Positions 3,172 to 49,200 of a stretch of 51,077 nt of DNA are shown piece by piece (within the stretch, counting starts at the first letter, position 1; every line of letters begins with the position of its first letter). Below the pieces are notes generated by a model that worked only from the letters and a program-made list of their open reading frames with translations, did no database searches and was not told where the DNA came from. The translations under genes and the position numbers were made by a program. This stretch comes from Shigella phage ESh4. The stretch is from sequence record ON528718; one strand, 5' to 3'.

Positions 3172-3218
3172 ATTATGCCCGACACAAGGCCGGGCGTTTT
3201 AACAAAAAGTGCTATTTT
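3172..3218 (-). promoter_or_regulatory. conserved promoter-like unit (22-bp element + hairpin spacer + CATAAT)
   Basis: Sense: AAATAGCACTTTTTGTTAAAAC-GCCCGGCCTTGTGTCGGG-CATAAT; 22 bp between TTGTTA and CATAAT; stop TAG of upstream ORF lies inside element. Confidence 0.55.
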
Positions 3219-3451
3219 GACGCTAATTCGTAAAACTCTTGCAAGTCTTTACCGATCTGCTCATGCCATTTTTCAAGCGGTAGTTTTCTTGTTTCCTCAA
3301 AACTCATATCTAATGCGCTTGAAAATTCCCACGGATCGCAATCAATCATCTTTTTCACGTTAGGGTTTTTATCAAGTGCATCGCATACCATAGCGCGATA
3401 CAAAAGAAATTCGCCATATTCATTAAGTAAAACTCTTCTTTCTTTCTGCAT
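3212..3451 (-). CDS. hypothetical protein (79 aa)
   Basis: ORF track; stop codon TAG embedded in conserved element AAATAGCAC. Confidence 0.5.
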   Translation of the reverse strand: MQKERRVLLNEYGEFLLYRAMVCDALDKNPNVKKMIDCDPWEFSSALDMSFEETRKLPLEKWHEQIGKDLQEFYELASK

Positions 3452-3455
3452 GGTT

Positions 3456-4157
3456 TTAGCTCCGTTTCCTTGCGCGACGGCCTTTGACAGAAGGGCACAT
3501 ATCGCTTATTTTCACGTAATGCGTTTGCTGTTGCTCTCCGCCTTTCAGTTGGCGCATAACAAAAATAACGCTTCCTTTATTGTTGCCTTGTACGGACTCA
3601 CCAGTCAGGCCAGAAATGAAGGCAAGTCGTCCGGTGCGGGAGCATTCCACACCTCCTTCCTCGTACACCTCGCCAGTGATCCAGATGATTTCCGCAGCGT
3701 GCTTTTGCGCTTCGTAAAACCAGGCTGTCGAGTTGTCCGCTGGCAACAAAATATCAATCTGGTTGTTGTGTTCCATTTGCTCAATCGCCTTCTTAACAAA
3801 TGGCGTAATATTGCTGTACGGTGGATTCAGCCATATATGCTTATTACTACCCCACCAACGCTTTAGGCAGTTGGTTTCCTTGCTATAAAACTTCTCGCAA
3901 ACTGCGTTTTCTGCTGATGCTGCCGCGTCGAGATCGTATTTCCCATATCGTCCAGACATCCACGCAACAACCTCCGGCGGCGATTGCCACAAATCGCGCA
4001 CAATGTCCGGCGTATTGCTGCCGTTATAGCGGTTGCCAGTCACTTTGAAATATTGATTTGGTTTAACAGCCTGATAATGACCACCAGTAGCAAGAGCATT
4101 ACCAATGAATGTTTCGCGTTCTATTTGTTCAAATGTCACTTCAGTTTCTTTGCTCAT
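3456..4157 (-). CDS. dam: DNA N6-adenine methyltransferase (Dam-like)
   Basis: NPPY catalytic motif (WLNPPYSN), DLDAAAS SAM-binding-like motif; typical phage Dam size. Confidence 0.8.
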   Translation of the reverse strand: MSKETEVTFEQIERETFIGNALATGGHYQAVKPNQYFKVTGNRYNGSNTPDIVRDLWQSPPEVVAWMSGRYGKYDLDAAASAENAVCEKFYSKETNCLKRWWGSNKHIWLNPPYSNITPFVKKAIEQMEHNNQIDILLPADNSTAWFYEAQKHAAEIIWITGEVYEEGGVECSRTGRLAFISGLTGESVQGNNKGSVIFVMRQLKGGEQQQTHYVKISDMCPSVKGRRARKRS

Positions 4158-4191
4158 TTCTTAATTACCTGTTGCTTGTTGAACTGGTGTT

Positions 4192-4237
4192 ATTATGGCG
4201 CAATCCTTCGCGCCTGTTTTAACAAAAAGTGCTATTT
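4192..4237 (-). promoter_or_regulatory. conserved promoter-like unit
   Basis: Sense: AAATAGCACTTTTTGTTAAAAC-AGGCGCGAAGGATTGCGC-CATAAT, hairpin GGCGC/GCGCC in spacer; 35 nt upstream of Dam start. Confidence 0.55.
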
Positions 4238-4651
4238 CATCATGTATTCTACCGCGATCATGAATTGCTTATATCCGTATGTTACGGCAGCGAATCCGCC
4301 AAGCTCACGCACACGACGCAAGAAGGCTTTTTGCTCCTTGCTTACTTGTGATGCCTTACCCTTGCCGGACTTATTGACGCGCTTCATCTCTATTGCCGCG
4401 AAAGGGTAACGGCCTTTTAATCCAATCAGGATGATAAAATCACTTACGCCCTTAACAAGCCCAGCTTGCTGATCCATCATTGCGGTGGCGATCCCCTTTT
4501 CCCCCTCATTTTTAGTATGCCATGCCAGCAATTCAGGATGAGCATAAGTTACCCATTGAAACGCGCCTATCTGATGCGATTCTTCTTTTAGTGTATCTGT
4601 CGGATCTCTTTCGTAAAACTCCAGATAATCGCCTTTATCAGTCATTGCCAT
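4232..4651 (-). CDS. VRR-NUC domain nuclease
   Basis: VRR-NUC-like core (SDFIILIGLKGRYPFAAIEMKRV...GKASQVSKEQKAFL); start moved to ATG at 4651 with AAGGA RBS to avoid 47-nt overlap with helicase. Confidence 0.65.
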   Translation of the reverse strand: MAMTDKGDYLEFYERDPTDTLKEESHQIGAFQWVTYAHPELLAWHTKNEGEKGIATAMMDQQAGLVKGVSDFIILIGLKGRYPFAAIEMKRVNKSGKGKASQVSKEQKAFLRRVRELGGFAAVTYGYKQFMIAVEYMMK

Positions 4652-6677
4652 AATTAAATTCCTTCTTGTACAAATTATCTTCACCCTTGCTAGTCTTGCG
4701 GTGAGTTACACGCGATGGTGGCATGATGTGATTCACATATTGCATGATTTTACGTGCATTACGATAGCTCGCCACCATGCCAGCAACACGGCGATCTGGT
4801 ATGTGCTTAAGAGCAACGCTTCGCCATTTTGCGCGGCAAATTTGGCTCTCAGATTCAGGGAAAAATATCTCTCTCGCCCTGAAAGTGTCTATGCCATCGG
4901 AAAGCTCATAATTAAATATTATCCCTTTCTGGTTTTTCGTCATGTCAACCGAGAAAGATTGCACCTGAAACCAGTCGTTTTTTGTGTAGTGCTTTCCGCT
5001 TAACTTCTCGTTAGGGTCAATCAATGACATGTCGCAATGTCTGCATACCCTGGCCGCAATATCATTTTTCGTTCCACAACCGCGCTGAATAATCTTTTTA
5101 GTGCGCGGGTCAATCTGATCATCGCATGTCCTGAATTTAAAGAACCACTCGCATCTGTTGCCGTTTTCGTCTACGTGCATACAGCGACGAGCATAATAGC
5201 TATTAAGAGTTCCGCAAATAGGGCAAGGCTTCGGATCTTTACCATTTCTGAATCGCTTCTGATGCTGCGCCTGTTCAAGTATCGGATCAAAATAAAGCTC
5301 GCCTAACTCATCCATCGTTCCTGAAAAATCCATTACGAGGTGATCATCTTTCTTGAATCCTTGCTCCTTATGCCACTTCTTAAGCAGTCGCATTCCACGC
5401 CCTAAAAGCTGAATCAGCAAAGTTAGCGATCCAATCTTACGCAGAATAACAGACGTATCCCAAAACGGCACGTTAACGCCAGTAGTTAGCGCCTGAACCT
5501 GGAAGATGTATTTTACCTTCCCTTCGTATGCTTCCCTCAACCACTCCTTGCGCTGATTGTCGCCAGTCTTACCAGTAATGATCCTGTAAGTAGTTCCAGG
5601 TGGCAACGCTGCCGCTGCCTCTTTGCAATGCCTTTCTCCTGCACATGTCACAAGTACGCCGTTGCGGTTTTTACAGATCTCGTGAACTTTCGCCATGATG
5701 CGCTTTGTCATGGTCGCTTCTTCATGAATTTTTTGTTCCATCCTGCGAAGCGTTTTAGCGTCAAAGTCTGCAACGCCATCCTCACTGGATGCCTCAAACT
5801 CTGAAAGGTCATACCCTAGATCGCCAACGTCGCCAAAATTTGTTGGCACAACAGAACCGAATTTGATCAGGTAGTTGGTGTCAATATTAGTAACCTGTTC
5901 ACGCCAGAATCCTTTCTGTTTTTTGTCTTCTACCAGGATCGGGACTACGCCGCGAAACTCCGATCCAGTCATGCCAAATATGCGCAGTTCATGGCCATAT
6001 GCTTTCCTGCATCGGCGCATCATTTCCATGATAATGACAGTGTATTGTGTGCGGCCTGTTCCCTCCATTGGCAAGCCATCCTCACCAATCAGGAACTCTT
6101 CGCATTCGTTATCGCTCGTTATGTCATAATCTGGATTTGGTACTTTTTCGCCTTTCTTCGTCGTCATTTGTAAAAATGATTCGTCTTTCTCTATTGCGTC
6201 GGCAAGGTCTTCCCAATCCACCTGGTGACACTCGTCAATCCCGATAACGTGCGGAACATAGTCGCCAAGCGCTTTAAACAGTCCATTAACTACAGTTCCC
6301 TCAGAACCAACAACTATCGGAAAGTATGCGCTTTTTGTCTTCAGTCCTGCGCAATAGATGGAGTTCGGCACGCCAAGATTTGTTATCTCTTCAGAATCCT
6401 GATCCACAATCTCAGCCTGGCGAGCAAGGACCATCATTTTTAATCCCATTTTCCGGCACTGGTGAGCAACCATTGCAAACATCAATGTTTTGCCAGCCGA
6501 TACGGACGCTTTAACAAAGAATGGATGCTCATAATTTTTCATACGTTTTGCGATCTCAGCGTATGCAACGCACTGGTAATGGTAAGGCACAATCTCGCCA
6601 ACAGTGAATCGCTCCTGAATGGATTTAATTACCGCTTCACCAAGTGCTGATATTTGCTTTTCAATGTTTGGAATCAT
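4638..6677 (-). CDS. SF2 DNA helicase with C-terminal zinc-ribbon
   Basis: Walker A (SVSAGKT), DExH box (IGIDECHQV), C-terminal Cys clusters (CPICG...C..C); start set at ATG 6677 (MIPNIEK) with AAAGG RBS, track start 6701. Confidence 0.8.
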   Translation of the reverse strand: MIPNIEKQISALGEAVIKSIQERFTVGEIVPYHYQCVAYAEIAKRMKNYEHPFFVKASVSAGKTLMFAMVAHQCRKMGLKMMVLARQAEIVDQDSEEITNLGVPNSIYCAGLKTKSAYFPIVVGSEGTVVNGLFKALGDYVPHVIGIDECHQVDWEDLADAIEKDESFLQMTTKKGEKVPNPDYDITSDNECEEFLIGEDGLPMEGTGRTQYTVIIMEMMRRCRKAYGHELRIFGMTGSEFRGVVPILVEDKKQKGFWREQVTNIDTNYLIKFGSVVPTNFGDVGDLGYDLSEFEASSEDGVADFDAKTLRRMEQKIHEEATMTKRIMAKVHEICKNRNGVLVTCAGERHCKEAAAALPPGTTYRIITGKTGDNQRKEWLREAYEGKVKYIFQVQALTTGVNVPFWDTSVILRKIGSLTLLIQLLGRGMRLLKKWHKEQGFKKDDHLVMDFSGTMDELGELYFDPILEQAQHQKRFRNGKDPKPCPICGTLNSYYARRCMHVDENGNRCEWFFKFRTCDDQIDPRTKKIIQRGCGTKNDIAARVCRHCDMSLIDPNEKLSGKHYTKNDWFQVQSFSVDMTKNQKGIIFNYELSDGIDTFRAREIFFPESESQICRAKWRSVALKHIPDRRVAGMVASYRNARKIMQYVNHIMPPSRVTHRKTSKGEDNLYKKEFNYGND

Positions 6678-6687
6678 TCTAAAACCT

Positions 6688-6715
6688 TTGAGTAATGCCA
6701 TTTAGCGTGTATAAT
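6688..6715 (+). promoter_or_regulatory. sigma70-like promoter for rightward block
   Basis: TTGAGT-16bp-TATAAT upstream of ORF 6767. Confidence 0.4.
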
Positions 6716-6755
6716 ACACAATCATTAAATCATCGTTTAACAAAAAATGCTATTG
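6711..6755 (-). promoter_or_regulatory. conserved promoter-like unit (helicase)
   Basis: Sense: AATAGCATTTTTTGTTAAAC + 21 bp + TATTAT; divergent with 6688-6715. Confidence 0.5.
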
Positions 6756-6766
6756 GAGAATGAATA

Positions 6767-7240
6767 ATGAAAGAAAAGCGGATCGCGGTATCAACTGGCA
6801 AGATTGACAAACGCACAATCAATGGCAATAACGGAACTCGACGTGGTAAAGATAAGAAAAAGCGAAAGCGCCCTACAGGATACTATGTTTTAAAAGATGA
6901 AGTGCGCGCCGGGCTAAAAGCGCGACTTGATATCCTTATTGAGTATTACGGAAGTGTGTCAGCAATGGCAAAACGTCTTAACGTTAGCCAGCAAACTGTA
7001 AATCAGTGGCGTGTTCGCGGTATGATTTCAGCCGCTGGCGCTCAAAAGGTGCATAACGATTACAAAAAATATGGCTGCCAAGGCTATCGCGCGTCATTCT
7101 GCCGTCCAGATCTGCGATTTGATTCCAATGGTAAACCGCTCACAAAGAGATGTGATAAGCGTGAAATGTTGCGAGTGGTAAGAATGTCAGATTATGAACC
7201 TAGCGGATTCCTGTATAAACCTGAAAGCACTAATTGCTAA
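6767..7240 (+). CDS. HTH DNA-binding protein (Cro/YdaS-like motif)
   Basis: MAKRLNVSQQTVNQWRVRGMIS helix-turn-helix signature; basic N-terminus; GGAGAA RBS. Confidence 0.55.
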   Translation: MKEKRIAVSTGKIDKRTINGNNGTRRGKDKKKRKRPTGYYVLKDEVRAGLKARLDILIEYYGSVSAMAKRLNVSQQTVNQWRVRGMISAAGAQKVHNDYKKYGCQGYRASFCRPDLRFDSNGKPLTKRCDKREMLRVVRMSDYEPSGFLYKPESTNC

Positions 7241-7295
7241 AAACAATGCCTGGCATGATGTTATCATCTGTCAGGCTTTTTTGCTTGAGGTGTAT

Positions 7296-8228: not shown

Positions 8229-8243
8229 ATGTCACTGCTACTT

Positions 8244-14119: not shown

Positions 14120-14157
14120 GTTTATTTCCTCACGCTTGTTGTTAACTTATGCAGTGA

Positions 14158-14166
14158 ATTATAACA
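14158..14166 (-). promoter_or_regulatory. extended -10 element (TGTTATAAT)
   Basis: TGnTATAAT on minus strand upstream of ORF 13841-14119. Confidence 0.35.
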
Positions 14167-14200
14167 CCGCATTTTTCATTTGTTTAGCTATTTGTGCTGT

Positions 14201-15690: not shown

Positions 15691-15733
15691 ATAGCACTTT
15701 TTGCTAAACGCCTACCGTAAGATCATGTATAGT
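15691..15733 (+). promoter_or_regulatory. conserved promoter-like unit (variant TTGCTA)
   Basis: ATAGCACTTTTTGCTAAAC + 21 bp + TATAGT, 32 nt upstream of ORF 15765. Confidence 0.5.
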
Positions 15734-15764
15734 TGCAACTAACAACAACGAAGGAGAAACCAAG

Positions 15765-20437: not shown

Positions 20438-20482
20438 GCTTTTTCACCTTTTGTGCTATTTGATTTGTTGAATTATACGGGC

Positions 20483-26906: not shown

Positions 26907-26952
26907 TGATAGCACTTTTTGTTAAAAGAATTGATTATGAATCGTGTATCAT
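26907..26952 (+). promoter_or_regulatory. conserved promoter-like unit in inverted (antisense) orientation
   Basis: Plus strand ATAGCACTTTTTGTTAAAAG + 22 bp + TATCAT, pointing rightward into the leftward tail operon. Confidence 0.4.
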
Positions 26953-26965
26953 GATTGTACAGTAA

Positions 26966-30665: not shown

Positions 30666-30693
30666 ATGATAGCATTTTTTGTTAAACGTGCAA
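30666..30693 (-). promoter_or_regulatory. sigma70-like promoter for major capsid gene (TTGCAC-16-TATCAT)
   Basis: Built from an inverted copy of the conserved element (plus 30669-30687). Confidence 0.45.
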
Positions 30694-30705
30694 CATAATT
30701 TTGTG

Positions 30706-31140
30706 TTATGGGTCAATGCTTACCCCGACAATATATGAATCATGATCAACCTTTACATGTTCGCCAGTAAATATCCAACCAATCAGCAAGTCGCCTTCAC
30801 TGTATGCCACATCTCCATCTTGCGTTACAAATACTTTATCTCCATATTCTGGCGCTTCGCTCTCAGAAGTTAAGCACCAAACATTACCACGACTAACCAC
30901 ATTAACTGGATCGCCCTCCTCATATATGCACGAGTCCGGCGGCCTTACTGCCACTCCAATAACCAGATCACCATTAACACTGACTATTTTATATCCGCTT
31001 GATATATATGATAACCTTACAATCTTACCTGGTGAAATAAACTCGTCTCCACATACAAAAGAACCATTAATCACCATTATTGAAGAATCAACCATGCATC
31101 CTGGCGACTCAGCGCCAACAATGACTGAATAATCACTCAT
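30706..31140 (-). CDS. capsid-associated protein, paralog A (decoration-like)
   Basis: Shares motifs with 31186-31698 (GVAV..., E.G...NV...G.VW.L....AP.[FY]G); same module. Confidence 0.5.
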   Translation of the reverse strand: MSDYSVIVGAESPGCMVDSSIMVINGSFVCGDEFISPGKIVRLSYISSGYKIVSVNGDLVIGVAVRPPDSCIYEEGDPVNVVSRGNVWCLTSESEAPEYGDKVFVTQDGDVAYSEGDLLIGWIFTGEHVKVDHDSYIVGVSIDP

Positions 31141-34909: not shown

Positions 34910-34939
34910 TTTGATTATATATTGGTTTGTCGATTCGTG

Positions 34940-36508
34940 CTATTTGTTCCGCAAACCTGCCAATTTTTTCATTCTTCCTACCGGATCATCTGCCATGTTC
35001 ATTTCAATGTTAACAGCATCAATGATGTTATCAACAATATCATCATGAGGATGGCTATCATCGAATGTAAACGCCGCAACTTCAGCGAGAATCTCAGCCA
35101 GCATAGGATGAGATTCTGGAAGTGCCACGCGTCCGGCGCGCATTACTGGTGCTGCGTCCATTGCGCGAGTAACCTTGTCTTTATCTCGCTGAACTGGATT
35201 GATCTTGATCATGATTTTTTTCGCTGCGCTCTGAATCAAGCCAGTGCCAGATGACTTGTCTTCAACATGAATCCTTCGCAACGTTCCGCATTCTTTATTG
35301 CGCTTCCAGCACTGATTAACGAACGCAACAAAATTCGTCTCAAGGTCCGGTGCTTCCCATTTTCCGCGAACGCCATCAATGAAGTAGACACGATCTTTAT
35401 ACATCCCCCAATAACAGATCACGGAATAGTCGTTAAGCTCACCTGTTTTCTGCGCGGTATCAACCGTGATAAATGTATATTCAAAGCGATCCGGTTTTGG
35501 TAGTGTGCATTTCTCGCTGCTGCCGTAATACTGAAACCACTCTGTTTTAAACACGTTGCCGCCAAGCGCAACAGGCTGTTGCTGATACTGACTAGCGAAC
35601 GTGTACGGATCAGCATTTCGAAGTGCAAGTAATTCCTCCGCGCTTTCCTTAGCAGGCCAGAATGAATAATGAGCAACTCCATCAATCATCACTGGCTTAC
35701 TGGACAAAACATCGCGATCAAACTCAGGCTTTAACCAATCAGGAAGCGTTTCGCGATATTCCTTAGTAACTAGCGCCGGAATACTGACCACCTTAAACTG
35801 GATGCCGCCCATGCCGCCGTTTGTCATGAACCATGTTGAATCATTGACGTGTAGCCGTTGCTGGACCATTACGATTGGCGTTGTGTCCTTCATTCTACGC
35901 GATCGCACCGTGTTCTTTAGGCGCATGTGTCCGGCTTCGCGCTTCACCTTAGAAAGCATATCATCCGGTTTGTCTGGATCATCAAGAACCAGCATACCAG
36001 TAAATCCATCGTCCATGTAGCCGCCACGCAGACCAGTAACCTGACCACCGATAGAGCGCGAGTTAACTTGCAATTTAACCTTGCCACCATCGGTTACAAT
36101 TAAATCCTTTGCGCTCGCCTTCGCCAGTTTTCCAGGCCATAGCTCCTGCCATTCTGGAGAACCAATAATCTCTTTGATGCGGTTGCTATTCTGCTGGACA
36201 AGGCCATCACTAAACGAAAGATTAAGATTTCGCACCTTCTTACTTTTCAATGACGCATAAGGTGACATGTGGATCGAGAATATCTCTGTTTTACCGCTGC
36301 CTGGCGTTATGTTGAAAATTACGTTTTGTGACTCGCCTTTGATGATTTTTTCAACTTCGCTGCATAGGTAGCTGAAATGCCAGTTTCCTAAGAATTTCTG
36401 ACCTTGCAATAATTGAAACCAAATGCGGATCATCTTTTCGAATGAATATTCGCTCATTTCCTTAACGGCGCGTTTCTGCGCCGCTGTTAAGTCTTCCCAA
36501 ATCAGCAT
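34940..36508 (-). CDS. terL: terminase large subunit
   Basis: Walker A-like ITPGSGKT, Walker B-like LVLDDPD, C-terminal nuclease-like acidic residues; 522 aa. Confidence 0.85.
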   Translation of the reverse strand: MLIWEDLTAAQKRAVKEMSEYSFEKMIRIWFQLLQGQKFLGNWHFSYLCSEVEKIIKGESQNVIFNITPGSGKTEIFSIHMSPYASLKSKKVRNLNLSFSDGLVQQNSNRIKEIIGSPEWQELWPGKLAKASAKDLIVTDGGKVKLQVNSRSIGGQVTGLRGGYMDDGFTGMLVLDDPDKPDDMLSKVKREAGHMRLKNTVRSRRMKDTTPIVMVQQRLHVNDSTWFMTNGGMGGIQFKVVSIPALVTKEYRETLPDWLKPEFDRDVLSSKPVMIDGVAHYSFWPAKESAEELLALRNADPYTFASQYQQQPVALGGNVFKTEWFQYYGSSEKCTLPKPDRFEYTFITVDTAQKTGELNDYSVICYWGMYKDRVYFIDGVRGKWEAPDLETNFVAFVNQCWKRNKECGTLRRIHVEDKSSGTGLIQSAAKKIMIKINPVQRDKDKVTRAMDAAPVMRAGRVALPESHPMLAEILAEVAAFTFDDSHPHDDIVDNIIDAVNIEMNMADDPVGRMKKLAGLRNK

Positions 36509-39125: not shown

Positions 39126-39157
39126 TTTGATTTCCTCTGTTTCGCTTCAATGAGGAC

Positions 39158-39202
39158 ACTTTAACAAATGCCCTCGCGGAAGTTTTAACAAAAAGTGCTA
39201 TT
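39158..39202 (-). promoter_or_regulatory. conserved promoter-like unit
   Basis: Sense AATAGCACTTTTTGTTAAAAC + 22 bp + TAAAGT; upstream gene stop TAA abuts element. Confidence 0.45.
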
Positions 39203-40472: not shown

Positions 40473-40502
40473 GTTCAAGTCCTTTCGTTGATTGGTGTTT
40501 GC

Positions 40503-40548
40503 ATTATAGCGAGGCATTGCGCCCCGCTTTTAGCAATTCGTGCTATTT
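40503..40548 (-). promoter_or_regulatory. conserved promoter-like unit (variant)
   Basis: Sense AAATAGCACGAATTGCTAAAAG + 22 bp + TATAAT; kinase stop TAG inside element. Confidence 0.55.
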
Positions 40549-41133: not shown

Positions 41134-41134
41134 A

Positions 41135-41272: not shown

Positions 41273-41327
41273 GATCTCCTGTTGTTATCTCAATATAGCG
41301 CACTGCATGAATGCGCTATAGCAAGAA

Positions 41328-41773: not shown

Positions 41774-41804
41774 GATTTAATCCTCGTTTGTTGTAGATGG
41801 GCTT

Positions 41805-41851
41805 ACTATACCGAAAGCCCGATAATCTGTTTTTGCAAAAAGTGCTATTTT
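41805..41851 (-). promoter_or_regulatory. conserved promoter-like unit (variant TTGCAA)
   Basis: Sense AAAATAGCACTTTTTGCAAAAAC + 22 bp + TATAGT; upstream gene stop TAG inside element. Confidence 0.5.
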
Positions 41852-42784: not shown

Positions 42785-42814
42785 CGTTTTATCCCCTTCG
42801 TTGAAAGTGAGGCC

Positions 42815-42859
42815 ATTATACCTGGCCCCGCATTTGAGTTTTAACAATTCGTGCTATTT
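42815..42859 (-). promoter_or_regulatory. conserved promoter-like unit (variant)
   Basis: Sense AAATAGCACGAATTGTTAAAAC + 21 bp + TATAAT with GGCC...GGCC dyad around -10. Confidence 0.55.
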
Positions 42860-43748: not shown

Positions 43749-43803
43749 GGTTATTTCTCCTGATTGGTTTAACTGGGCGACGCCGTGCCGCCCTATGTGA
43801 TTT

Positions 43804-43849
43804 ATTATGCCTGGTTATCGTTTTTGAGTTTTAACAAAAAATGCTATTT
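43804..43849 (-). promoter_or_regulatory. conserved promoter-like unit
   Basis: Sense AAATAGCATTTTTTGTTAAAAC + 22 bp + CATAAT. Confidence 0.55.
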
Positions 43850-44033: not shown

Positions 44034-44048
44034 TTATTCACCTGCTAA

Positions 44049-44234: not shown

Positions 44235-44267
44235 TTTTGTTTTCCTCAATCTCGTTTCGATGAGGCT

Positions 44268-44313
44268 ATTATGCCAGGCTTTGCACCTGGCGTTTTAACA
44301 AAAAGTGCTATTT
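44268..44313 (-). promoter_or_regulatory. conserved promoter-like unit with CCAGG/CCTGG hairpin
   Basis: Sense AAATAGCACTTTTTGTTAAAAC-GCCAGGTGCAAAGCCTGG-CATAAT, near-identical to unit 48478-48524. Confidence 0.55.
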
Positions 44314-44317
44314 CCGC

Positions 44318-44566: not shown

Positions 44567-44567
44567 T

Positions 44568-45038
44568 TTATTTCTCCTCATCGTTAAGGTATGTTTCTTT
44601 AATGATCGCGTGAAAGTCTGCGATCGCCTTAGCAAGTGTTTCATATTCATCTGGCGAGTAGTTCGCTAGGTTTGGTGAGACTTTAAGCATCGACTCAGCA
44701 ACCTGGCGTTTTGCTTTCGCTACAGCCTTCTCAAGCGCGGCCTTGTTGTATACCCTGCGATTAGGCGCACTAACAATCGCCACATCAAAGTAATTTTCCC
44801 CGAAATATTTGTGATCAGGGCCGTAAGGTTTCTTTGAAACTGAAACCCTCCCTTTCTCCGCCACTTCTGGAACTCGCCCCATAATCTGACGCAGATATGA
44901 TCCGGCATTGCTGGCTGACTTCTTGCCCTCCAGGTGCTGCCTTACCCATCTTTCAGGTATCTGGATCGATTCGTGCAATCCAGATGCGAGCGCAGTAGCA
45001 ACCTTGCGAAGCTCATTTGTAAATACAGATTCACTCAT
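44568..45038 (-). CDS. hypothetical protein (156 aa), first gene of leftward early operon
   Basis: ORF with GAGAGGG RBS downstream of TTGACA-17-AATAAT promoter. Confidence 0.5.
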   Translation of the reverse strand: MSESVFTNELRKVATALASGLHESIQIPERWVRQHLEGKKSASNAGSYLRQIMGRVPEVAEKGRVSVSKKPYGPDHKYFGENYFDVAIVSAPNRRVYNKAALEKAVAKAKRQVAESMLKVSPNLANYSPDEYETLAKAIADFHAIIKETYLNDEEK

Positions 45039-45069
45039 GCTTTATACCCTCTCGTGATTCAGTGGCTGC

Positions 45070-45098
45070 ATTATTATTTACCATTCCTGGCGTGTCAA
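45070..45098 (-). promoter_or_regulatory. sigma70-like early promoter (TTGACA-17-AATAAT)
   Basis: Perfect -35 TTGACA on minus strand, 17-bp spacer, AATAAT; 30 nt upstream of ORF 44568-45038. Confidence 0.5.
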
Positions 45099-45229
45099 AT
45101 GTTTTTTATTGTTATTGGCAGTTTTTCAATGTTGTCTTTTCATAGCACAACAAGATTCTCGTTTTTCTCCTTATAAATCAATGTTATTTTGGCGTGTTAT
45201 CTAAAAATGCGCGGATTCGCCCCTACCCC

Positions 45230-45370
45230 ATATATACATACCTGCCAACACACAACCACATACAATCACCAAAAATACATCAGACATCAATATGACCACA
45301 TAACATACATAACAGATAGTAATTTATAGATACATATAAATAAATAATCCTTATTTTTTAGTATGTTATA
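45230..45370. repeat. low-complexity CA-rich / TA-rich tract
   Basis: ccaacacacaaccacatacaatcacc...cataacatacataacagatag...; shares the 13-mer acacaaccacata with region 15430-15620. Confidence 0.6.
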
Positions 45371-45422
45371 TGGATTTCTCTTGTTATTTTTTGTTATGCG
45401 ATTCCACGCCGGAATAACACGC

Positions 45423-45460
45423 ATAACAGCGATAACAGAAGATAACAGATGTGCGCGCCA
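45423..45460. repeat. ATAACAG direct repeats (3-4 copies)
   Basis: cATAACAGcgATAACAGaagATAACAGatg; iteron-like. Confidence 0.5.
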
Positions 45461-45579
45461 GGATTGCCGAAAAGGACGCAAGAGGACCGCGTTTATCTAT
45501 CCCCTCCACACAAAAAGTTAATCAACTGATTAAAATTGATCAAACTCAAAGTCTCACAATCCAGGTGATCGCGAATGAG

Positions 45580-45619
45580 TTATTCCTGTTATTCCTGATT
45601 AATGGAATAGATGGAATAA
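45580..45619. promoter_or_regulatory. operator-like array of four TTATTCC half-sites
   Basis: TTATTCCTG TTATTCCTG attaat GGAATAGAT GGAATAAT: two direct repeats and two inverted copies with 9-bp period, just upstream of promoter unit 45632-45677. Confidence 0.5.
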
Positions 45620-45631
45620 TCGCCAGTTGAG

Positions 45632-45677
45632 AAATAGCACTTTTTGTTAAAACTGAATCCGCCTGATCGGGTACATT
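45632..45677 (+). promoter_or_regulatory. conserved promoter-like unit (first rightward gene)
   Basis: AAATAGCACTTTTTGTTAAAAC + 22 bp + TACATT, 40 nt upstream of ORF 45717. Confidence 0.5.
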
Positions 45678-45716
45678 ACACACATCGAAACGAGACACCC
45701 ATCAGGAGACGGTAAG

Positions 45717-45989
45717 GTGAACATCAGCAAAACCACTTTCAACTTTGCAAAGCGTCACGGTCTGGATCTGACTGTTGAAGACTTCGGCGATGTTCTGCAA
45801 CTCTGCATTTGGGAAGCGGATAACGATTGCGAGTGGCTTTGCTCTTATCGTATCAATTACGATTGCTTAACCTGGCACGGTAATATCTATCTGCCGCAAG
45901 AAGTGAAAGAGGAATTGCCAGCTACCATCAATAATGAAGTGTTTTTGCGCAAAGTCCTGAAGTTTATTGCTGATGAGATCAAGAAATGA
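45717..45989 (+). CDS. hypothetical protein (90 aa)
   Basis: ORF with AGGAGACGG RBS, GTG start. Confidence 0.5.
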   Translation: MNISKTTFNFAKRHGLDLTVEDFGDVLQLCIWEADNDCEWLCSYRINYDCLTWHGNIYLPQEVKEELPATINNEVFLRKVLKFIADEIKK

Positions 45990-46231
45990 TTAGTGAAGTG
46001 GATTTTGAACTTGCCGAGGCCCAGGTAAGGGCCAAAAAGATGGGTTTGCGTATACTGACGAAAACCGTGGAGTTTCCGTCGATGCCGTTCGCATCATTCC
46101 ATAAAGTGACGGTGTTCAGTAGCAAACGCGAGTTTAACGCGCTAATCCCTGCTGGTGATGATAAGCGCATGGCAAAATTTATTAACGAGTCCTGTGATGT
46201 TCTGATGGCAGTTAAACACGATCAACAATGA
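45986..46231 (+). CDS. hypothetical protein (81 aa)
   Basis: ORF track, ATGA overlap with upstream gene. Confidence 0.5.
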   Translation: MISEVDFELAEAQVRAKKMGLRILTKTVEFPSMPFASFHKVTVFSSKREFNALIPAGDDKRMAKFINESCDVLMAVKHDQQ

Positions 46232-46244
46232 AGGAGAAATAAAG

Positions 46245-46511
46245 ATGGCGCGAATCAATGCACCTATTCCAGTTAAGCGCAAAGCACGACTGCTTAACAA
46301 TGGATGTTACGCCCTGCGGCCTGATTTTAAAAAACGCACCTTTCCGGTTATCGTCAACGTGTCGCACGTAAGCCGTAGCGGGAATCTGGCCTTTGTTAAC
46401 GGTGAAGATCTGGCGGCGCTTGGATTCTATGGCGGTATTTACGGCGAACCGCTCGGATTCTGGCTTGTAAATCCGTCAACTGGAGAACGTGAAATCGAAT
46501 TCCTGGACTAA
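46245..46511 (+). CDS. hypothetical protein (88 aa)
   Basis: ORF with GGAGAAATAAAG RBS; stop TAA abuts conserved element. Confidence 0.5.
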   Translation: MARINAPIPVKRKARLLNNGCYALRPDFKKRTFPVIVNVSHVSRSGNLAFVNGEDLAALGFYGGIYGEPLGFWLVNPSTGEREIEFLD

Positions 46512-46555
46512 ATAGCATTTTTTGTTAAAACCGATGCGCCTATGATTGGTATATT
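46510..46555 (+). promoter_or_regulatory. conserved promoter-like unit
   Basis: AAATAGCATTTTTTGTTAAAAC + 22 bp + TATATT; -10 lies in loop of CGATGCGC...GCGCATCG dyad. Confidence 0.55.
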
Positions 46556-46586
46556 ATGCGCATCGACAACGAACGAGGATTTAAAA

Positions 46587-46751
46587 ATGGAAACACAGGT
46601 TGATGTTAAAGTTATTAAGCGCGACAAATCTCACGAGAAAGGAATCTTTAAGAAAGGCACTATCATCACCATTGATCTTGAGGATATGGAGGCTTACCAC
46701 TCAGGTCTAACTTGGAACGTGCGCAAATGTGAAAACGGCCTGTTCAAGTAA
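46587..46751 (+). CDS. hypothetical protein (54 aa, trimmed)
   Basis: ATG 46587 with GAGGA RBS; track start 46542 would lie inside the promoter unit. Confidence 0.4.
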   Translation: METQVDVKVIKRDKSHEKGIFKKGTIITIDLEDMEAYHSGLTWNVRKCENGLFK

Positions 46752-46783
46752 AATGGCTTTGAAACATACATGGAGATCATCTA

Positions 46784-46984
46784 ATGGCAAAGAAATTAAA
46801 ACTTAAATGCGTAGAAACTTATAACTCAACTTGGAAATTCACGCGAGGGAAAGAATACCCAATAATGGGAAATCTCAAAGAAGATCCTCATTTAATTTCA
46901 GATAATTGTTTAATGGAATGCAACGATGGATATATCGGTGCTGGTGTTCCAGGCCATAAATTTAAGCTGAAAAATAAGAAATGA
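46784..46984 (+). CDS. hypothetical protein (66 aa)
   Basis: ORF track; Lys-rich. Confidence 0.45.
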   Translation: MAKKLKLKCVETYNSTWKFTRGKEYPIMGNLKEDPHLISDNCLMECNDGYIGAGVPGHKFKLKNKK

Positions 46985-47080
46985 GGCTATTTATTTTCAA
47001 AAACGCTTGGATGGTGGCGGTTGCAAATGACCATTATGGTGGAGACGGCAAGCGAGCAAATCGCCATAGCTATTTCAACT

Positions 47081-47124
47081 AATAGCACGAATTGCTAAAC
47101 AATATTTCTCAAACCTGGTATAGT
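47081..47124 (+). promoter_or_regulatory. conserved promoter-like unit (variant)
   Basis: AATAGCACGAATTGCTAAAC + 21 bp + TATAGT. Confidence 0.5.
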
Positions 47125-47154
47125 TACCACGCCAAATATAATGAGGATTGCATA

Positions 47155-47382
47155 ATGAAAGCTAAAGTCACTAACATCATGCACACTGTTGATGCACATC
47201 ACCGCGTCGCCATTAAGATGGATAAATCTTGCGGAATCAACCAGTTAACCATCACGAGTGGTAAAGGTGTGTTTGTTGTTGGCTCACATCCAGGTAGTAA
47301 AATCCGCAAATATACACGCGAAGAATTGATTAAATTGCTTGAAGAAAACAGCATGTTTATTGAAAGCTGGAAAGCTGTATGA
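47155..47382 (+). CDS. hypothetical protein (75 aa, trimmed)
   Basis: ATG 47155 with GAGGA RBS downstream of unit 47081-47124. Confidence 0.45.
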   Translation: MKAKVTNIMHTVDAHHRVAIKMDKSCGINQLTITSGKGVFVVGSHPGSKIRKYTREELIKLLEENSMFIESWKAV

Positions 47383-47389
47383 TTAATCA

Positions 47390-47417
47390 ATGGGAGATTT
47401 CCGCCTCCCATTTTATC
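47390..47417 (+). terminator. possible hairpin terminator/attenuator
   Basis: ATGGGAG-N8-CTCCCAT followed by TTTATC. Confidence 0.35.
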
Positions 47418-47429
47418 AATGGGGAATAA

Positions 47430-47543
47430 ATGATTAAGGCGCTTGATATTTTATTTGGTGTTATGATTGGCCTTGTGGGTTTGCTTGTTTTTACTGCCGG
47501 GCTTGTAATTATTATTGCTGTTATTAAGGAGTTTATTAAATGA
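47430..47543 (+). CDS. small membrane protein (37 aa, below track cutoff)
   Basis: ATG 47430 with GGGGAATAA RBS; single TMD (ILFGVMIGLVGLLVFTAGLVIIIAVI); stop overlaps next start. Confidence 0.35.
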   Translation: MIKALDILFGVMIGLVGLLVFTAGLVIIIAVIKEFIK

Positions 47544-47764
47544 GTCAAGACGGTTTTTTTGAGCGACTGCAAAAAGCGGAAGATGCCGGACTGAATAAAG
47601 AGGCTGCGCTTGAAGTGGCATATAAGATCAGGACGCTTGATGATGCGCTTGGTGAAATGGATATGGATCATGAATGTGGCGCTGCGTTTGCAGATCCAAC
47701 GATGATTGTTAATGATTGTGGATGCAATTTTGATCCTAACTGTGCGCGATGCTTTCCGTTTTGA
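47540..47764 (+). CDS. hypothetical protein (74 aa, Cys-rich C-terminus)
   Basis: ORF with AAGGAG RBS; HECG...CGC...CARC motifs. Confidence 0.45.
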   Translation: MSQDGFFERLQKAEDAGLNKEAALEVAYKIRTLDDALGEMDMDHECGAAFADPTMIVNDCGCNFDPNCARCFPF

Positions 47765-47773
47765 GGTGATGAA

Positions 47774-48484
47774 ATGTATAAAGGTTTAATTTTCTCTTTG
47801 TTTGATGGATCTGGTAAAGCCGTTAAAGATTGGGCCGACGCTGGATATAAGTGCATTTGCTTTAATGCTGACGGTGGCGATCATGGTGATTACCAGTCAG
47901 TGCGCATACAGCATGAGAATATCGAATACGTTAACTTCTGGATTGATGAAAGATTTTACCACCGCGCGCGCTGGGAGGAATGGGGTATTCCTGACTTTAT
48001 TATGGCATTTCCTCCTTGCACACAATTAGCAAATAGCGGATCTCGTCATTGGGCTAAAAAGCGCGTGGAAAATCCTAACTTCCAGGATGAGGCCGCAGAC
48101 ACTTGCAAAATTGCGGCGCATATCGCTGATTATTTCGGTGTTCCGTACATGATAGAGAATCCTGTAGGAAAGTTATCAACGTTATGGCGGAAGCCTGATT
48201 ATACTTTCCATCCGTGCGATTATGCTGGCTATCTGCCGGAAGATGATAAGCATCCCGACTTCCCTGATATTATTCCGGCGCGGGATCGCTACTTTAAGAA
48301 AACATGCCTTTGGACTGGAAACGGATTTGTTATTCCTCCGCGCGCAACAATCCTTCCTAAAGAGGGCGACAAGGATAATCCTGGCTGGGCCAAAACTGGC
48401 GGAAAATCATCTCGCACAAAGATGATTCGCTCCCTCACACCGCGCGGTTTTGCTCGCGCCGTCTTTGAAGTAAACGCAAAATAG
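47774..48484 (+). CDS. DNA cytosine-5 methyltransferase-like protein (compact)
   Basis: Motif I-like LFDGSG, motif IV-like FPPCTQLANSG (Pro-Cys), motif VI-like MIENPVG; 236 aa; stop TAG inside conserved element. Confidence 0.5.
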   Translation: MYKGLIFSLFDGSGKAVKDWADAGYKCICFNADGGDHGDYQSVRIQHENIEYVNFWIDERFYHRARWEEWGIPDFIMAFPPCTQLANSGSRHWAKKRVENPNFQDEAADTCKIAAHIADYFGVPYMIENPVGKLSTLWRKPDYTFHPCDYAGYLPEDDKHPDFPDIIPARDRYFKKTCLWTGNGFVIPPRATILPKEGDKDNPGWAKTGGKSSRTKMIRSLTPRGFARAVFEVNAK

Positions 48485-48524
48485 CACTTTTTGTTAAAAG
48501 CCAGGTGTAAAAGCCTGGCATAAT
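48478..48524 (+). promoter_or_regulatory. conserved promoter-like unit with CCAGG/CCTGG hairpin
   Basis: AAATAGCACTTTTTGTTAAAAG-CCAGGTGTAAAAGCCTGG-CATAAT; 31 nt upstream of ORF 48556. Confidence 0.55.
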
Positions 48525-48555
48525 CACTTCACCGAAACGAAAGGAGGAATAAACG

Positions 48556-48942
48556 ATGAAAGTTATCTGCAATAAAACCAACGTTTTGATGAACGGTCGT
48601 TATAAAGCTGTATACGAAAAAATTGCTGGTAGCGATGATGTGATCGAGTTGGAACAATTCCAGGTAAAGAGCATTACAAAGGGTAGCAAGTGGCAAAACG
48701 CTGTTGAGTCTGACTATCGTCATATCAAGACAAAAACAATTAAATGCACCTTTGTAGATCACAAGATCCCGTGTAAAAAGCATTTCAAAGAAGGAAAGCG
48801 TTACCAGATTGAGCAAGGTCGCGCTCTTGGTGCTGTTGCTGGTTATGTTTTTGATGAAGCTGGCGACCGCTGGACGCTATACCGCGAAGAAGTAGGATTT
48901 TCCGCTGGTGGCTGTCATTTGTTTGAGGCTATGTATAAGTGA
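48556..48942 (+). CDS. hypothetical protein (128 aa)
   Basis: ORF with AAAGGAGGAATAAACG RBS. Confidence 0.5.
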   Translation: MKVICNKTNVLMNGRYKAVYEKIAGSDDVIELEQFQVKSITKGSKWQNAVESDYRHIKTKTIKCTFVDHKIPCKKHFKEGKRYQIEQGRALGAVAGYVFDEAGDRWTLYREEVGFSAGGCHLFEAMYK

Positions 48943-49160
48943 TCAAGACTGAATATCGCTATAAGGTGACTTATTCAGCAACAAAAACCTTCAAGCCTGG
49001 CGATATAGTCAGGCCAATAAAGAAAACGACGGTTGGATGGCTGATTGGTCTTTCTTACCACAAATCACTTTATTTTGATTTTGCTGATTCCGTAACCGCG
49101 CATTGCCATAGCGCAAGGGAACCAGAAAAAATCTTGGTTAGCATAGAGCGGATCAAATAG
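48939..49160 (+). CDS. hypothetical protein (73 aa)
   Basis: ORF track; stop TAG inside conserved element. Confidence 0.45.
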   Translation: MIKTEYRYKVTYSATKTFKPGDIVRPIKKTTVGWLIGLSYHKSLYFDFADSVTAHCHSAREPEKILVSIERIK

Positions 49161-49200
49161 CATTTTTTGTTAAATGCGGGTAGCATTGTTGCGGTATTAT
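49155..49200 (+). promoter_or_regulatory. conserved promoter-like unit
   Basis: AAATAGCATTTTTTGTTAAATG + 22 bp + TATTAT. Confidence 0.55.

Follow-up and report, generated by a model that had tools for sequence, protein, structure and literature searches.

In the 51,077-nucleotide stretch of DNA from the T1-like Shigella phage ESh4 analysed here (record ON528718; hereafter the window), a promoter cassette recurs whose every unit, judging from its sequence, has a somewhat better than even chance of being a class II sigma-70 promoter of the kind activated by MarA/SoxS/Rob, and through which the phage probably uses host stress activators to turn on about 19 early transcription units. The sequence match to the marbox, its orientation and spacing, the missing -35, the lack of a phage AraC-like protein and the presence of cassettes in phages without the candidate regulator are direct observations, from which we infer activator binding and activator dependence in vivo.

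All 15 copies of the 22-base element listed in a preliminary description are present, with positions and strands as given there. The 22-mer AAATAGCACTTTTTGTTAAAAC has 12 matches in the window at up to three mismatches, against 0.00 expected from 100 shuffles of the window, and 16 at up to six; the copy at 47081-47124, TAATAGCACGAATTGCTAAACA, was verified by reading the sequence directly. Beyond the listed 15 lie two strong copies on the plus strand (26909-26928 and 30669-30688), both antisense to structural genes, two variant units with good geometry (7224-7243 on the plus strand before the primase gene, and 14181-14200 on the minus strand) and two degenerate boxes without a usable -10 (34924-34943 and 20440-20459, both minus), where chance would supply none. 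The orientation toward the downstream gene that had been claimed for every copy fails at the two antisense copies.

The units proved promoter-like as proposed: they have a good -10 and lack a usable -35, the hexamer at the -35 position being AAAACn, which matches TTGACA at about two of six positions. The gap from the end of the 20-bp box to the start of the -10-like hexamer is 18 bp, or 17 bp in five units of the window, equivalent to the 21-22 bp after TTGTTA first described. Start codons lie 28-39 nt past the -10 in most units, and 55 nt past it in one. The original placement of the 22-mer at -55 to -34 was wrong; with +1 set 7 nt past the hexamer, it occupies -52 to -31. Since the upstream block is conserved at a fixed spacing, a protein contact overlapping the -35 position is indicated. 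The earlier interpretation is therefore partly supported: an activator-dependent, -35-less promoter was right in kind, whereas the phage regulators and the MotA analogy it put forward are unsupported, the box differing from the MotA box in sequence and centring near -41 rather than -30. An UP-element-like reading fares no better, as the block has invariant G4, C5, C7 and G13, a misfit to an A/T-only UP consensus. The strict conservation of the cassette is explicable without any phage RNA polymerase, which need not be invoked.

The box, ATAGCACnnnTTGYTAAAAC, matches both published consensus sequences of the MarA/SoxS/Rob marbox. The older of them, AYNGCACNNWNNRYYAAAY, reportedly that of Martin et al. 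1999, has 17 matches in the window at up to one mismatch, against 1.35 expected. The published search pattern gcannwwntgnnaaa (PMC12052159) has 21 exact matches in the window against 1.72 expected, 18 of them being the repeat; it matches once in lambda and never in T7. Over 73 units, positions left free by the pattern also conform to the consensus (A1 in 70, T2 in 67, C7 in 66 and T15 in 71), and position 14, a Y, is C in 39 and T in 34. An A lies 7 nt past the hexamer in 61 of the 73, and a G is conserved at -14 in 60. With +1 at that A, G4, A6, G13, Y14, A16 and A17 fall at -47, -45, -38, -37, -35 and -34, which are the bases contacted by Rob in the cryo-EM structure of its complex with micF.

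By definition, class II promoters combine a canonical -10 with a forward marbox that overlaps the -35 and clusters near -41, and their -35 is not recognisable. The host MarA/SoxS/Rob(/RamA) promoters of this class in Enterobacteriaceae (micF, lpxL P1, rfaY P1) share all of this arrangement with the phage units, together with a 20-bp asymmetric box whose A-site is GCAC and whose B-site is YAAA. Read directly, the E. coli micF promoter is ACAGCACTGAATGTCAAAAC, 18 bp and TAGAAT, identical to the phage units in box orientation and box-to--10 gap. Host marboxes, however, are degenerate, scattered and present once per regulon promoter, whereas this virulent phage carries about 19 near-perfect copies that would drive most early units, couples each unit with a conserved leader and a hairpin embedded in it, and points two copies antisense into late genes.

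The marbox identity of the repeat, as read from sequence, appears to be new, although the repeat itself is known from relatives: the 21-nt direct repeats aaATAGCACnnnTTGnTAAAA described in 2024 in phage TLS, and also in T1, Rtp and Rogue1, are the same element (PMC11447400). In the portion of that paper available to us, the function of the repeat is left open, with a stoperator, an enhancer site or an UP element suggested, and that portion makes no mention of a fixed 18-bp link to a -10, of marbox identity, of hairpins or of podovirus copies. A comparison among relatives, which the preliminary description had proposed as an alignment, bore out the element's conservation, with 13-21 matches per genome and fewer than one in shuffles across six Drexlerviridae genomes representing four E. 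coli lineages and Klebsiella KP36. Of 100 units in these six genomes, 74 have a box-to--10 gap of 18 bp, 12 one of 17 bp and 4 one of 19 bp. The pattern also occurs in two unrelated-looking podoviruses, IME_EC2 (Murrayvirus; 6 matches against 0.06 expected) and C130_2 (Hungariovirus; 8 against 0.18), most of whose units have a -10 at 18 bp and between which megablast detected no nucleotide similarity. Only replication and recombination enzymes are common to all cassette-bearing lineages; because both podoviruses have a T1-like replication module, their cassettes may have moved with it and are not fully independent evidence. All credible hosts of the cassette phages are Enterobacteriaceae. Some 19 to 20 near-identical records carry the label 'Campylobacter phage', and a single C130_2 relative carries 'Stutzerimonas phage', labels that, if correct, would count against an Enterobacteriaceae-specific reader.

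With good -10 hexamers and the G at -14 kept in most units, the promoters might fire without any activator. On this account, which we find quite unlikely, holoenzyme alone would act on the -10, A/T-rich upstream DNA would serve as an UP-like contact for the alpha-CTD, and the box would be kept for some other reason or by recent duplication. The box does contain T and A tracts, and UP elements are among the possibilities raised in the available portion of the TLS paper (PMC11447400). Binding of the alpha-CTD to A-tract minor grooves nevertheless leaves the invariant G/C at positions 4, 5, 7 and 13 unexplained. Compared by eye, the box also fails to align with the UP consensus, nnAAAWWTWTTTTnnnAAAnnn. 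Recent duplication is ruled out by the motif's identity among subfamilies whose proteins are 50-70% identical, as well as in two further genera, and the strict 18-bp phasing points to a protein bridging to RNA polymerase.

Among the 880 six-frame ORFs of the window we found no MarA/Rob-like (AraC-like) protein (best E 0.58). The regulators first proposed, the HTH protein at 6767-7240 and the phosphoesterase at 1514-2632, do not fit the role, as IME_EC2 carries cassettes without a homologue of either and C130_2 without the HTH protein (tblastn E for the HTH protein 3.2 in IME_EC2 and 0.11 in C130_2). These absences together favour a host-encoded reader. Gene 6767..7240 (+) encodes a Cro/YdaS-like 'transcriptional regulator' with a single HTH that is not AraC-like, and it is unlikely, in our estimate, that this protein reads the box as a dimer on TAGCA-N5-TGCTA centred near -42, either activating some 19 units in the manner of lambda cI at PRM or Mu Mor/C or else shutting them off later, with the marbox resemblance a coincidence. 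That partial palindrome does lie in the box and counts against a host activator, its 5-bp arms being perfectly complementary in the TTGCTA variants by direct reading. The regulator is kept at 55-71% identity across five phages, T1, TLS, KP36 and Rogue1 among them, and matches PHROG 'transcriptional regulator' families. Its own sigma-70-like promoter, TTGAGT-16-TATAAT at 6688..6715 (+), also read directly, and a reverse-complement marbox (6734-6753) in leader DNA that its transcript would cross suggest autoregulation; beside this box, the conserved protein could bind as a repressor or competitor. Yet near-invariant A1, C7, T11, A17 and A18 make conservation asymmetric and break the dyad, the mix of C and T at position 14 is that of the marbox where a palindrome requires C, both podoviruses have the 18-bp geometry without the regulator, and neither the micF spacing nor the perfect agreement with two marbox consensus sequences would be accounted for. 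T4 MotA/AsiA middle promoters, Mu Mor/C and lambda cI at PRM resemble the ESh4 units in having a -10 without a usable -35 and a protein site overlapping or abutting the -35 at fixed spacing, but their activators are phage-encoded and their boxes different (the MotA box centres at -30), whereas ESh4 has no identifiable phage activator and its box is a predicted host-factor site.

Each unit is given below as box, gap and downstream hexamer or element. Leftward, unit 3165..3215 (-) has marbox ATAGCACTTTTTGTTAAAAC at 3215-3196, an 18 bp spacer containing a hairpin, CATAAT at 3177-3172 and a predicted +1 at the A at 3165, before ORF 2960-3139 and then the phosphoesterase and lysis genes. Unit 4185..4235 (-), before the Dam-like methyltransferase gene 3456-4157, has a perfect marbox at 4235-4216, an 18 bp spacer with hairpin GGCGC/GCGCC and CATAAT at 4197-4192. 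The -10 of unit 6704..6753 (-) (marbox ATAGCATTTTTTGTTAAACG, 17 bp, TGTATTAT; helicase gene 4638-6701) overlaps that of the divergent regulator promoter. The variant 14151..14200 (-) (ACAGCACAAATAGCTAAACA, 17 bp, TATAAT) stands before ORF 13841-14119, with the Erf and SSB genes lying downstream. Three units have the -10 inside a hairpin: 39151..39201 (-) (marbox, 18 bp, TAAAGT; GAGGGCA/GTCCTC; ORF 38913-39125), 41798..41848 (-) (ATAGCACTTTTTGCAAAAAC, 18 bp, TATAGT; GGGCTT/AAGCCC; ORF 41510-41773) and 42808..42857 (-) (ATAGCACGAATTGTTAAAAC, 17 bp, TATAAT; GGGGCCA/GGCCTC; ORF 42563-42784). Unit 40496..40546 (-) (ATAGCACGAATTGCTAAAAG, 18 bp, TATAAT) precedes ORF 40068-40472; unit 43797..43847 (-) (ATAGCATTTTTTGTTAAAAC, 18 bp, CATAAT), with hairpin GGGCGGCACGGCGTCGCCC in its 5' leader, precedes ORF 42858-43748; and unit 44261..44311 (-) (perfect marbox, 18 bp spacer with hairpin CCAGG/CCTGG, CATAAT, leader ATCGAAACGA) precedes ORF 44049-44234. 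The sole near-consensus sigma-70 promoter of the early region, TTGACA-17-AATAAT at 45070..45098 (-), precedes the first leftward gene, 44568-45038 (DUF7174).

The first rightward unit, 45634..45684 (+) (perfect marbox, 18 bp, TACATT, leader ATCGAAACGA), precedes ORF 45717-45989 (phrog_6147, unknown function). It is followed by 46512..46562 (+) (ATAGCATTTTTTGTTAAAAC, 18 bp, TATATT, the -10 inside an 8-bp inverted repeat GATGCGC/GCGCATC; ORF 46587-46751), 47082..47131 (+) (ATAGCACGAATTGCTAAACA, 17 bp, TATAGT; ORF 47155-47382), 48481..48531 (+) (ATAGCACTTTTTGTTAAAAG, 18 bp spacer with hairpin CCAGG/CCTGG, CATAAT; ORF 48556-48942) and 49157..49207 (+) (ATAGCATTTTTTGTTAAATG, 18 bp, TATTAT inside hairpin GCGG/CCGC; putative helicase gene 49229-50812). 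Elsewhere, unit 15691..15740 (+) (ATAGCACTTTTTGCTAAACG, 17 bp, TGTATAGT) precedes ORF 15765-15995, at the T1 cor position, and the variant 7224..7274 (+) (AAAGCACTAATTGCTAAAAA, 18 bp, TATCAT), before the primase gene, has its -10 in the hairpin loop of a true terminator, GCCTGGCA...TGTCAGGC and then TTTTTT. The antisense unit 26909..26959 (+) (marbox, 18 bp, TGTATCAT), between the major-tail and tape-measure-chaperone genes, is directed into a bidirectional terminator, GGGGCGCAACGCCCC, and keeps its position in T1 and JakobBernoulli; the other, 30669..30719 (+), upstream of the major capsid gene, has marbox ATAGCATTTTTTGTTAAACG and a weak -10, and keeps its position in T1, TLS and JakobBernoulli. 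Of the degenerate boxes, 34924..34943 (-) (ATAGCACGAATCGACAAACC) lies ahead of the portal gene, with a terminator after it and no -10 at a distance of 17-19 bp, and is probably a relic; that at 20440..20459 (-) (ATAGCACAAAAGGTGAAAAA), also lacking a -10, overlaps the J-like tail gene at its start and is kept in relatives.

Most units hold a GC-rich hairpin that either encloses the -10 (36 of 71 hairpins) or lies within the spacer (24 of 71); it varies in sequence, keeps its pairing and is placed in the cassette's only free sequence, the 18-bp spacer and 6-nt discriminator. Its mean folding energy, -8.6 kcal/mol, compares with -3.7 for shuffled sequence (p = 3e-16) and -5.6 when spacer and discriminator are drawn from different units (p = 3e-7). 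Three of these hairpins are annotated as terminators in the T1 GenBank record. The hairpin would form only in read-through transcripts from the upstream gene, which it probably terminates or 3'-stabilises; transcripts initiated at the unit would lack its 5' arm and so escape it. The PeSLs (promoter-early stem-loops) of T4-like phages, described as composite terminator/early-promoter motifs, are likewise repeated promoter and stem-loop cassettes flanking small early genes in variable regions, with mosaicism breakpoints nearby. The promoters of PeSLs are of the ordinary sigma-70 early kind and have the stem-loop beside them, whereas the ESh4 promoter has a predicted activator box in place of a -35 and nests the hairpin within itself.

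PeSLs have been implicated in shuffling, and 4 of 11 early-region homology breakpoints between ESh4 and JakobBernoulli lie within 30 nt of a cassette, where 0.9 would be expected (P about 0.009). The boxes might be mainly recombination modules shuffling small early genes, or else decoys, dozens to thousands of which on replicating DNA would titrate MarA/SoxS/Rob off host stress genes, as their being far nearer consensus than typical degenerate host marboxes would suit. We hold it very unlikely that either is the main role, with promoter activity secondary: neither needs the fixed 18-bp distance to a -10, the gene-directed orientation or a start codon about 30 nt downstream, and both are compatible with promoter function without replacing it.

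In the class II reading that we prefer, the asymmetric 20-bp box, forward at about -50 to -31, would replace the -35 element and be bound by a monomer of a host MarA-family activator: Rob, which is constitutively expressed at a high level, or MarA, SoxS and, in Klebsiella, RamA, which are stress-induced. Its two helix-turn-helix motifs would lie on GCAC (-47 to -44) and GYTAAA (-38 to -33), and by touching sigma-70 region 4 and the alpha subunit C-terminal domain it would recruit RNA polymerase to the -10 hexamer (-12 to -7; G at -14), transcription starting at the A of the conserved leader, AUCGAAACGA, that follows. Against this, MarA and SoxS are scarce and Rob largely sequestered in unstressed cells, T1-like phages grow fast on laboratory strains, and reported class II activation by RamA and MarA is only 2-4 fold; we found no transcriptome of a T1-like phage in the literature. 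A perfect marbox copy in exactly the position that it takes in class II promoters of the host nevertheless indicates that the phage probably uses MarA/SoxS/Rob.

The window is the complete or near-complete genome of a T1-like phage that belongs to the Tempevirinae, a subfamily of the Drexlerviridae, and sits close to Hanrivervirus; Shigella phage pSf-1 and the Escherichia phages damhaus, vojen and JakobBernoulli are 92-95% identical to it. All 15 promoter-like copies listed in the preliminary description are real, that at 47081 having been verified by reading the sequence, and the 22-mer they share has 12 matches in the window at up to three mismatches, with none expected, and 16 at up to six. 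Each unit is built from a 20-bp core, hereafter the box (ATAGCAC-nnn-TTGYTAAAAC), a spacer, a -10-like hexamer and a leader, and the fixed distance noted earlier between element and hexamer is borne out, the hexamer starting 17-18 bp past the core. We propose that these units are most likely class II marbox promoters, in which the binding site of the E. coli activators MarA, SoxS and Rob overlaps the -35 position, read by these host proteins and fused to an insulating hairpin.

The preliminary description also placed a ribosome-binding site and start codon 25-45 bp after the hexamer; a Shine-Dalgarno sequence and start codon are indeed present, and the distance is 28-39 nt in most units. Orientation toward the downstream gene applies to the listed copies but fails for two strong copies absent from that list, 26909 and 30669 (+), which are antisense to structural genes. 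Also missing from it were a variant unit at 7224 (+), which precedes the primase gene, a second variant unit at 14200 (-) and degenerate boxes at 34943 and 20459 (-). The last of these, ATAGCACAAAAGGTGAAAAA at 20440-20459 (-), overlaps the J-like tail-tip gene at its start codon and has no -10 at the usual distance, yet the same site is kept across subfamilies in T1, TLS and JakobBernoulli. The antisense boxes, 26909-26959 (+) after the major tail gene and 30669-30719 (+) before the major capsid gene, point into the late operon; both sites recur in T1 (18850-, 15086-) and JakobBernoulli and one in TLS (15042-), and the 26909-26959 unit is predicted to give a short RNA running into a bidirectional terminator. 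These two boxes may drive antisense RNAs or act through transcriptional interference.

The core agrees at all ten specified positions with gcannwwntgnnaaa, a search pattern defined from MarA ChIP-seq (PMC12052159), which has 21 exact matches in the window against 1.72 expected. Across six Drexlerviridae genomes (the window, JakobBernoulli, T1, TLS, Klebsiella phage KP36 and Rogue1) the pattern occurs 13-21 times per genome, against fewer than one in shuffled sequence, and lambda and T7 contain one match and none, respectively. An older 20-bp marbox consensus, AYnGCACnnWnnRYYAAAYn, has 17 matches at up to one mismatch in the window against 1.35 expected, and the core agrees with it at every specified position but 19. 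This sole systematic deviation, A for Y, recurs in the micF promoter of E. coli. Over 73 units drawn from five genomes, the positions of the box that the search pattern did not force (A1, T2, C7 and T15) follow the consensus, and at position 14, a Y in the consensus, 39 units have C and 34 have T. Comparison across related Drexlerviridae, a check suggested earlier for the element, finds box and spacing conserved in all six genomes. As a rough estimate, the probability that an unrelated conserved 20-mer would fit one of a few hundred E. coli factor motifs as closely as here, orientation and spacing included, would be well below 1%.

The geometry of the units can be set beside that of known class II promoters. 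Of 100 gaps measured from the box to the best -10 hexamer in the six genomes, 74 are 18 bp long, 12 are 17 bp and four are 19 bp, and in every unit GCAC lies distal to the -10 and YAAA proximal, which is the forward orientation. Because the box stops 18 bp short of the hexamer, it covers roughly -50 to -31. The defining features of class II promoters are a forward marbox that overlaps the -35 position, clustering near -41, together with a canonical -10 and no recognizable -35; in Salmonella class II promoters, -35 matches average 1.9. The hexamer at this position in the phage units, AAAACn, matches TTGACA at about two of six bases, and the earlier argument that TTGTTA is no canonical -35 stands, with 21-22 bp separating it from the -10. 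The -10 itself follows tATAaT, with T at position 1 in 60 and at position 3 in 62 of the 73 units (A2 and T6 were imposed by unit selection), and is accompanied by a G at -14 in 60/73 and an A 7 nt past the hexamer in 61/73. Taking that A as +1 places G4, A6, G13, Y14, A16 and A17 of the box at -47, -45, -38, -37, -35 and -34, and the bases at these six positions are the Rob contacts reported in the Rob-micF transcription activation complex. The micF promoter is the structural paradigm of class II activation by Rob, SoxS and RamA, and in MG1655 it reads ACAGCACTGAATGTCAAAAC, 18 bp, TAGAAT, start; its orientation and 18-bp gap are identical to those of the phage units, micF being the sole class II promoter compared directly. 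The units combine the sequence features of the class: an asymmetric 20-bp marbox, forward orientation near -41, the micF gap, and a canonical -10 with no -35. We hold with high confidence that the boxes would bind MarA, SoxS and Rob in vitro and with moderate confidence, somewhat better than even, that these proteins would be their main readers in vivo.

Two other readings had been offered for the block upstream of the -10. The UP element has an A/T-only consensus at -59 to -38 with A-tracts at both subsites; compared by eye with that consensus, the box contradicts it at G4, C5 and G13, which the pattern fixes, and at C7 (66/73 units), and its T-runs fall where the proximal subsite has A's. 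The analogy with T4 middle promoters also breaks down: MotA-dependent promoters carry a TGCTTtA box that has its centre at -30 and lies 11-13 bp away from the -10, in phages with MotA and AsiA genes, whereas the conserved block here ends 18 bp before the -10 and has another sequence, and neither gene appears in the annotation of the close relative JakobBernoulli. That annotation, of a genome 92-95% identical to the window, likewise lists no phage RNA polymerase gene, in agreement with the earlier statement that none is present, and the units, with their sigma-70-type -10 hexamers, do not match the promoters of single-subunit phage RNA polymerases, which lack sigma-70 elements. Sigma-54 promoters carry TGGCAC-N5-TTGC at -24/-12 and start about 12 nt downstream; the phage TAGCAC-N3-TTGY lacks the GG, is 2 bp short in spacing and has its conserved -10 a further 22 bp on, and we reject this class. 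Sigma-32, considered for the CCCCAT that is frequent after the -10, was rejected as well, no CTTGAAA being seen by eye at 13-15 bp. The stoperators of mycobacteriophage L5 are asymmetric sites inside the transcription units of a temperate phage, bound by its repressor and without a fixed link to a -10; the present units do not fit this type, as the phage is virulent and its -10 phasing is fixed at 17-19 bp, and neither a repressor nor an integrase is annotated in close relatives. Canonical sigma-70 promoter-like sites are depleted from 38 to 51 kb (38000-51077), where a simple scan gave 12 against 27.5 +/- 5.1 in shuffles, a second reason for rejecting TTGTTA as a -35. The sole near-consensus site in this region, TTGACA-17-AATAAT at 45098-45070 (-), lies ahead of the first leftward gene (DUF7174), and no function was found for any of the early proteins adjoining the first promoters.

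With E. coli MarA and the N-terminal domain of Rob as queries, phmmer and hmmsearch found no AraC/MarA-like protein among 880 six-frame ORFs of the window (best E 0.58). Of the two phage proteins put forward earlier as cognate regulators, that encoded at 6767-7240 (+) is Cro/YdaS-like, contains one HTH and is 55-71% identical among five Drexlerviridae, and in the phosphoesterase at 1514-2632 the match to HTH_28 is weak and misses the cut-off (E 0.0026). Neither candidacy is supported by comparison with two podoviruses with P22-like structural genes, found by scanning viral contigs for the motif: IME_EC2 (Murrayvirus) has six exact pattern matches against 0.06 expected and C130_2 (Hungariovirus) has eight matches against 0.18, with the -10 at 18 bp in most of their units and the same leader in some. 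Both genomes lack a homologue of the 6767-7240 protein and a MarA-like protein, and the phosphoesterase is absent from IME_EC2. Megablast detected no nucleotide similarity between the two, and the proteins shared by every lineage are limited to the helicase, primase, exonuclease VIII, Erf, VRR-NUC and Dam. We therefore favor a host-encoded reader, on the grounds that no phage ORF is MarA-like, that the podovirus cassettes occur without the regulator and that so few proteins are common. Rob, which is constitutively present at a high level, is for that reason the natural candidate for immediate early expression. The T1-like replication and recombination module in both podoviruses suggests that siphovirus and podovirus lineages have exchanged modules, and since IME_EC2 and C130_2 carry its replication genes, the cassettes may have travelled with the module. 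Some records (MG065649, MG065687, OR754315) bear host labels that look doubtful, the 'Campylobacter phage' records being 97% identical to this coliphage genus and the 'Stutzerimonas phage' record 95.5% identical to Escherichia phage C130_2; if true, these labels would weaken the argument for a host factor.

Properties of the activators and of the units temper this reading. MarA and SoxS are scarce without stress, Rob is mostly sequestered, and RamA or MarA is reported to activate class II promoters 2-4 fold; given the good -10 and the G at -14, substantial activator-independent activity is possible. The box also contains a partial palindrome, TAGCA-N5-TGCTA, so the 6767-7240 regulator could still bind it as a competitor or shut-off factor. 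A dimeric operator on this palindrome is disfavored, however, as A1, C7, T11, A17 and A18 break the dyad, and the asymmetric conservation of the box argues against a simple dimer operator. The regulator gene has its own promoter, TTGAGT-16-TATAAT at 6688-6715 (+), whose -10 overlaps, face to face, the TATTAT -10 of the divergent helicase unit (-) within 6688-6766, so that the regulator transcript would cross the box, as the reverse complement, from about +12 to +31. An occupied box could therefore block transcription of the regulator, and the arrangement would suit autoregulation or a switch.

Besides the marbox and -10, the cassettes carry embedded hairpins. The sequence of spacer and discriminator varies across units, while self-complementarity is kept within each: the mean folding energy of spacer, hexamer and next 8 nt is -8.6 kcal/mol, against -3.7 for shuffled sequence (p = 3e-16) and -5.6 for cross-unit pairing (p = 3e-7). 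Among 71 units, the hairpin encloses the -10 in its loop in 36 and lies within the spacer in 24, and 10 have none. GC-rich inverted repeats occur, for example, at 39151-39182, 41798-41829, 44261-44292 and 46532-46562, and also in T1, TLS and KP36. The T1 record annotates three in-spacer hairpins as rho-independent terminators, the T-rich -10 region serving as tail, but the -10-enclosing class has AUCGAAACGA downstream and no U-run, which speaks against ordinary intrinsic terminators; that reading is limited to some of the in-spacer hairpins and the 7224 unit. The latter (7224-7295), between the regulator and primase genes, is a promoter inside a clear terminator, with a variant box, 18 bp, and TATCAT in the loop of a hairpin GCCTGGCA...TGTCAGGC followed by TTTTTT; here read-through RNA would be terminated and unit-started RNA spared. 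A transcript started by a unit has its 5' end at or within the 3' arm and can form no hairpin, and the hairpin would therefore act on read-through RNA only. We envisage that it insulates each unit, through termination or 3' stabilization of read-through RNA. The arms are polar, the 5' arm G-rich and the 3' arm C-rich, which suggests a function on one strand or on RNA.

Downstream, a conserved leader, A-U-C-G-A-A-A-C-G/A-A, starts at the predicted +1; as (C)ATCGAAACGA it lies 7-17 nt past the -10, for example at 44261-44251, 45684-45694 and 48531-48541, and is also present in KP36, Rogue1 and C130_2. Rfam gave no match anywhere in the window, the leader included. Over window positions 39100-47010, four of 11 homology breakpoints relative to JakobBernoulli lie no more than 30 nt from a cassette, where 0.9 would be expected. 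For the one genome pair compared, this recalls the PeSL motifs of T4-like phages, cassettes of promoter and stem-loop repeated at the borders of variable small early genes; the repeats may serve as crossover points for shuffling small early genes.

The repeat itself has been described before. The 2024 re-annotation of TLS reports a 21-nt direct repeat, aaATAGCACnnnTTGnTAAAA, which occurs 21 times, oriented with transcription and about 76 nt ahead of start codons, and the same repeat in T1, Rtp and Rogue1 (PMC11447400). There the authors recognize three sigma-70-like promoters only, offer stoperators, enhancer sites or UP elements as options for the repeat, and list its function as an open question (PMC11447400). 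The observation itself is thus a rediscovery. Our literature search found the repeat sequence described in the TLS paper alone, no link of marboxes, MarA, SoxS or Rob to phage promoters, and no Drexlerviridae transcription-start or transcriptome data. From the literature searched, the marbox reading appears to be new, and it offers a concrete answer to the question posed for T1-like phages, testable with existing reagents.

A broader proposal can be advanced only tentatively, and we consider it rather doubtful in its full form: that T1-like phages, and at least two podovirus genera sharing their replication module, would wire essentially all early transcription to host MarA/SoxS/Rob by way of some 20 perfect class II marboxes in each genome. 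If so, the host's stress state (bile, salicylate, oxidants) would tune early expression, and replicating boxes would titrate a limited activator pool, turning off the early promoters and the two late-region antisense promoters. Titration would then act as a copy-number timer for the early-to-late switch and would blunt the host stress and efflux response. The marbox reading, if correct, would explain why conventional finders report almost no promoters in these genomes and would supply compact, strong, activator-responsive promoter/insulator cassettes. It would also mean that a large family of virulent enterobacterial phages in therapeutic use requires multidrug-resistance regulators or is tuned by them, which would tie the susceptibility to these phages, and their timing, to exposure to antibiotics and stress.
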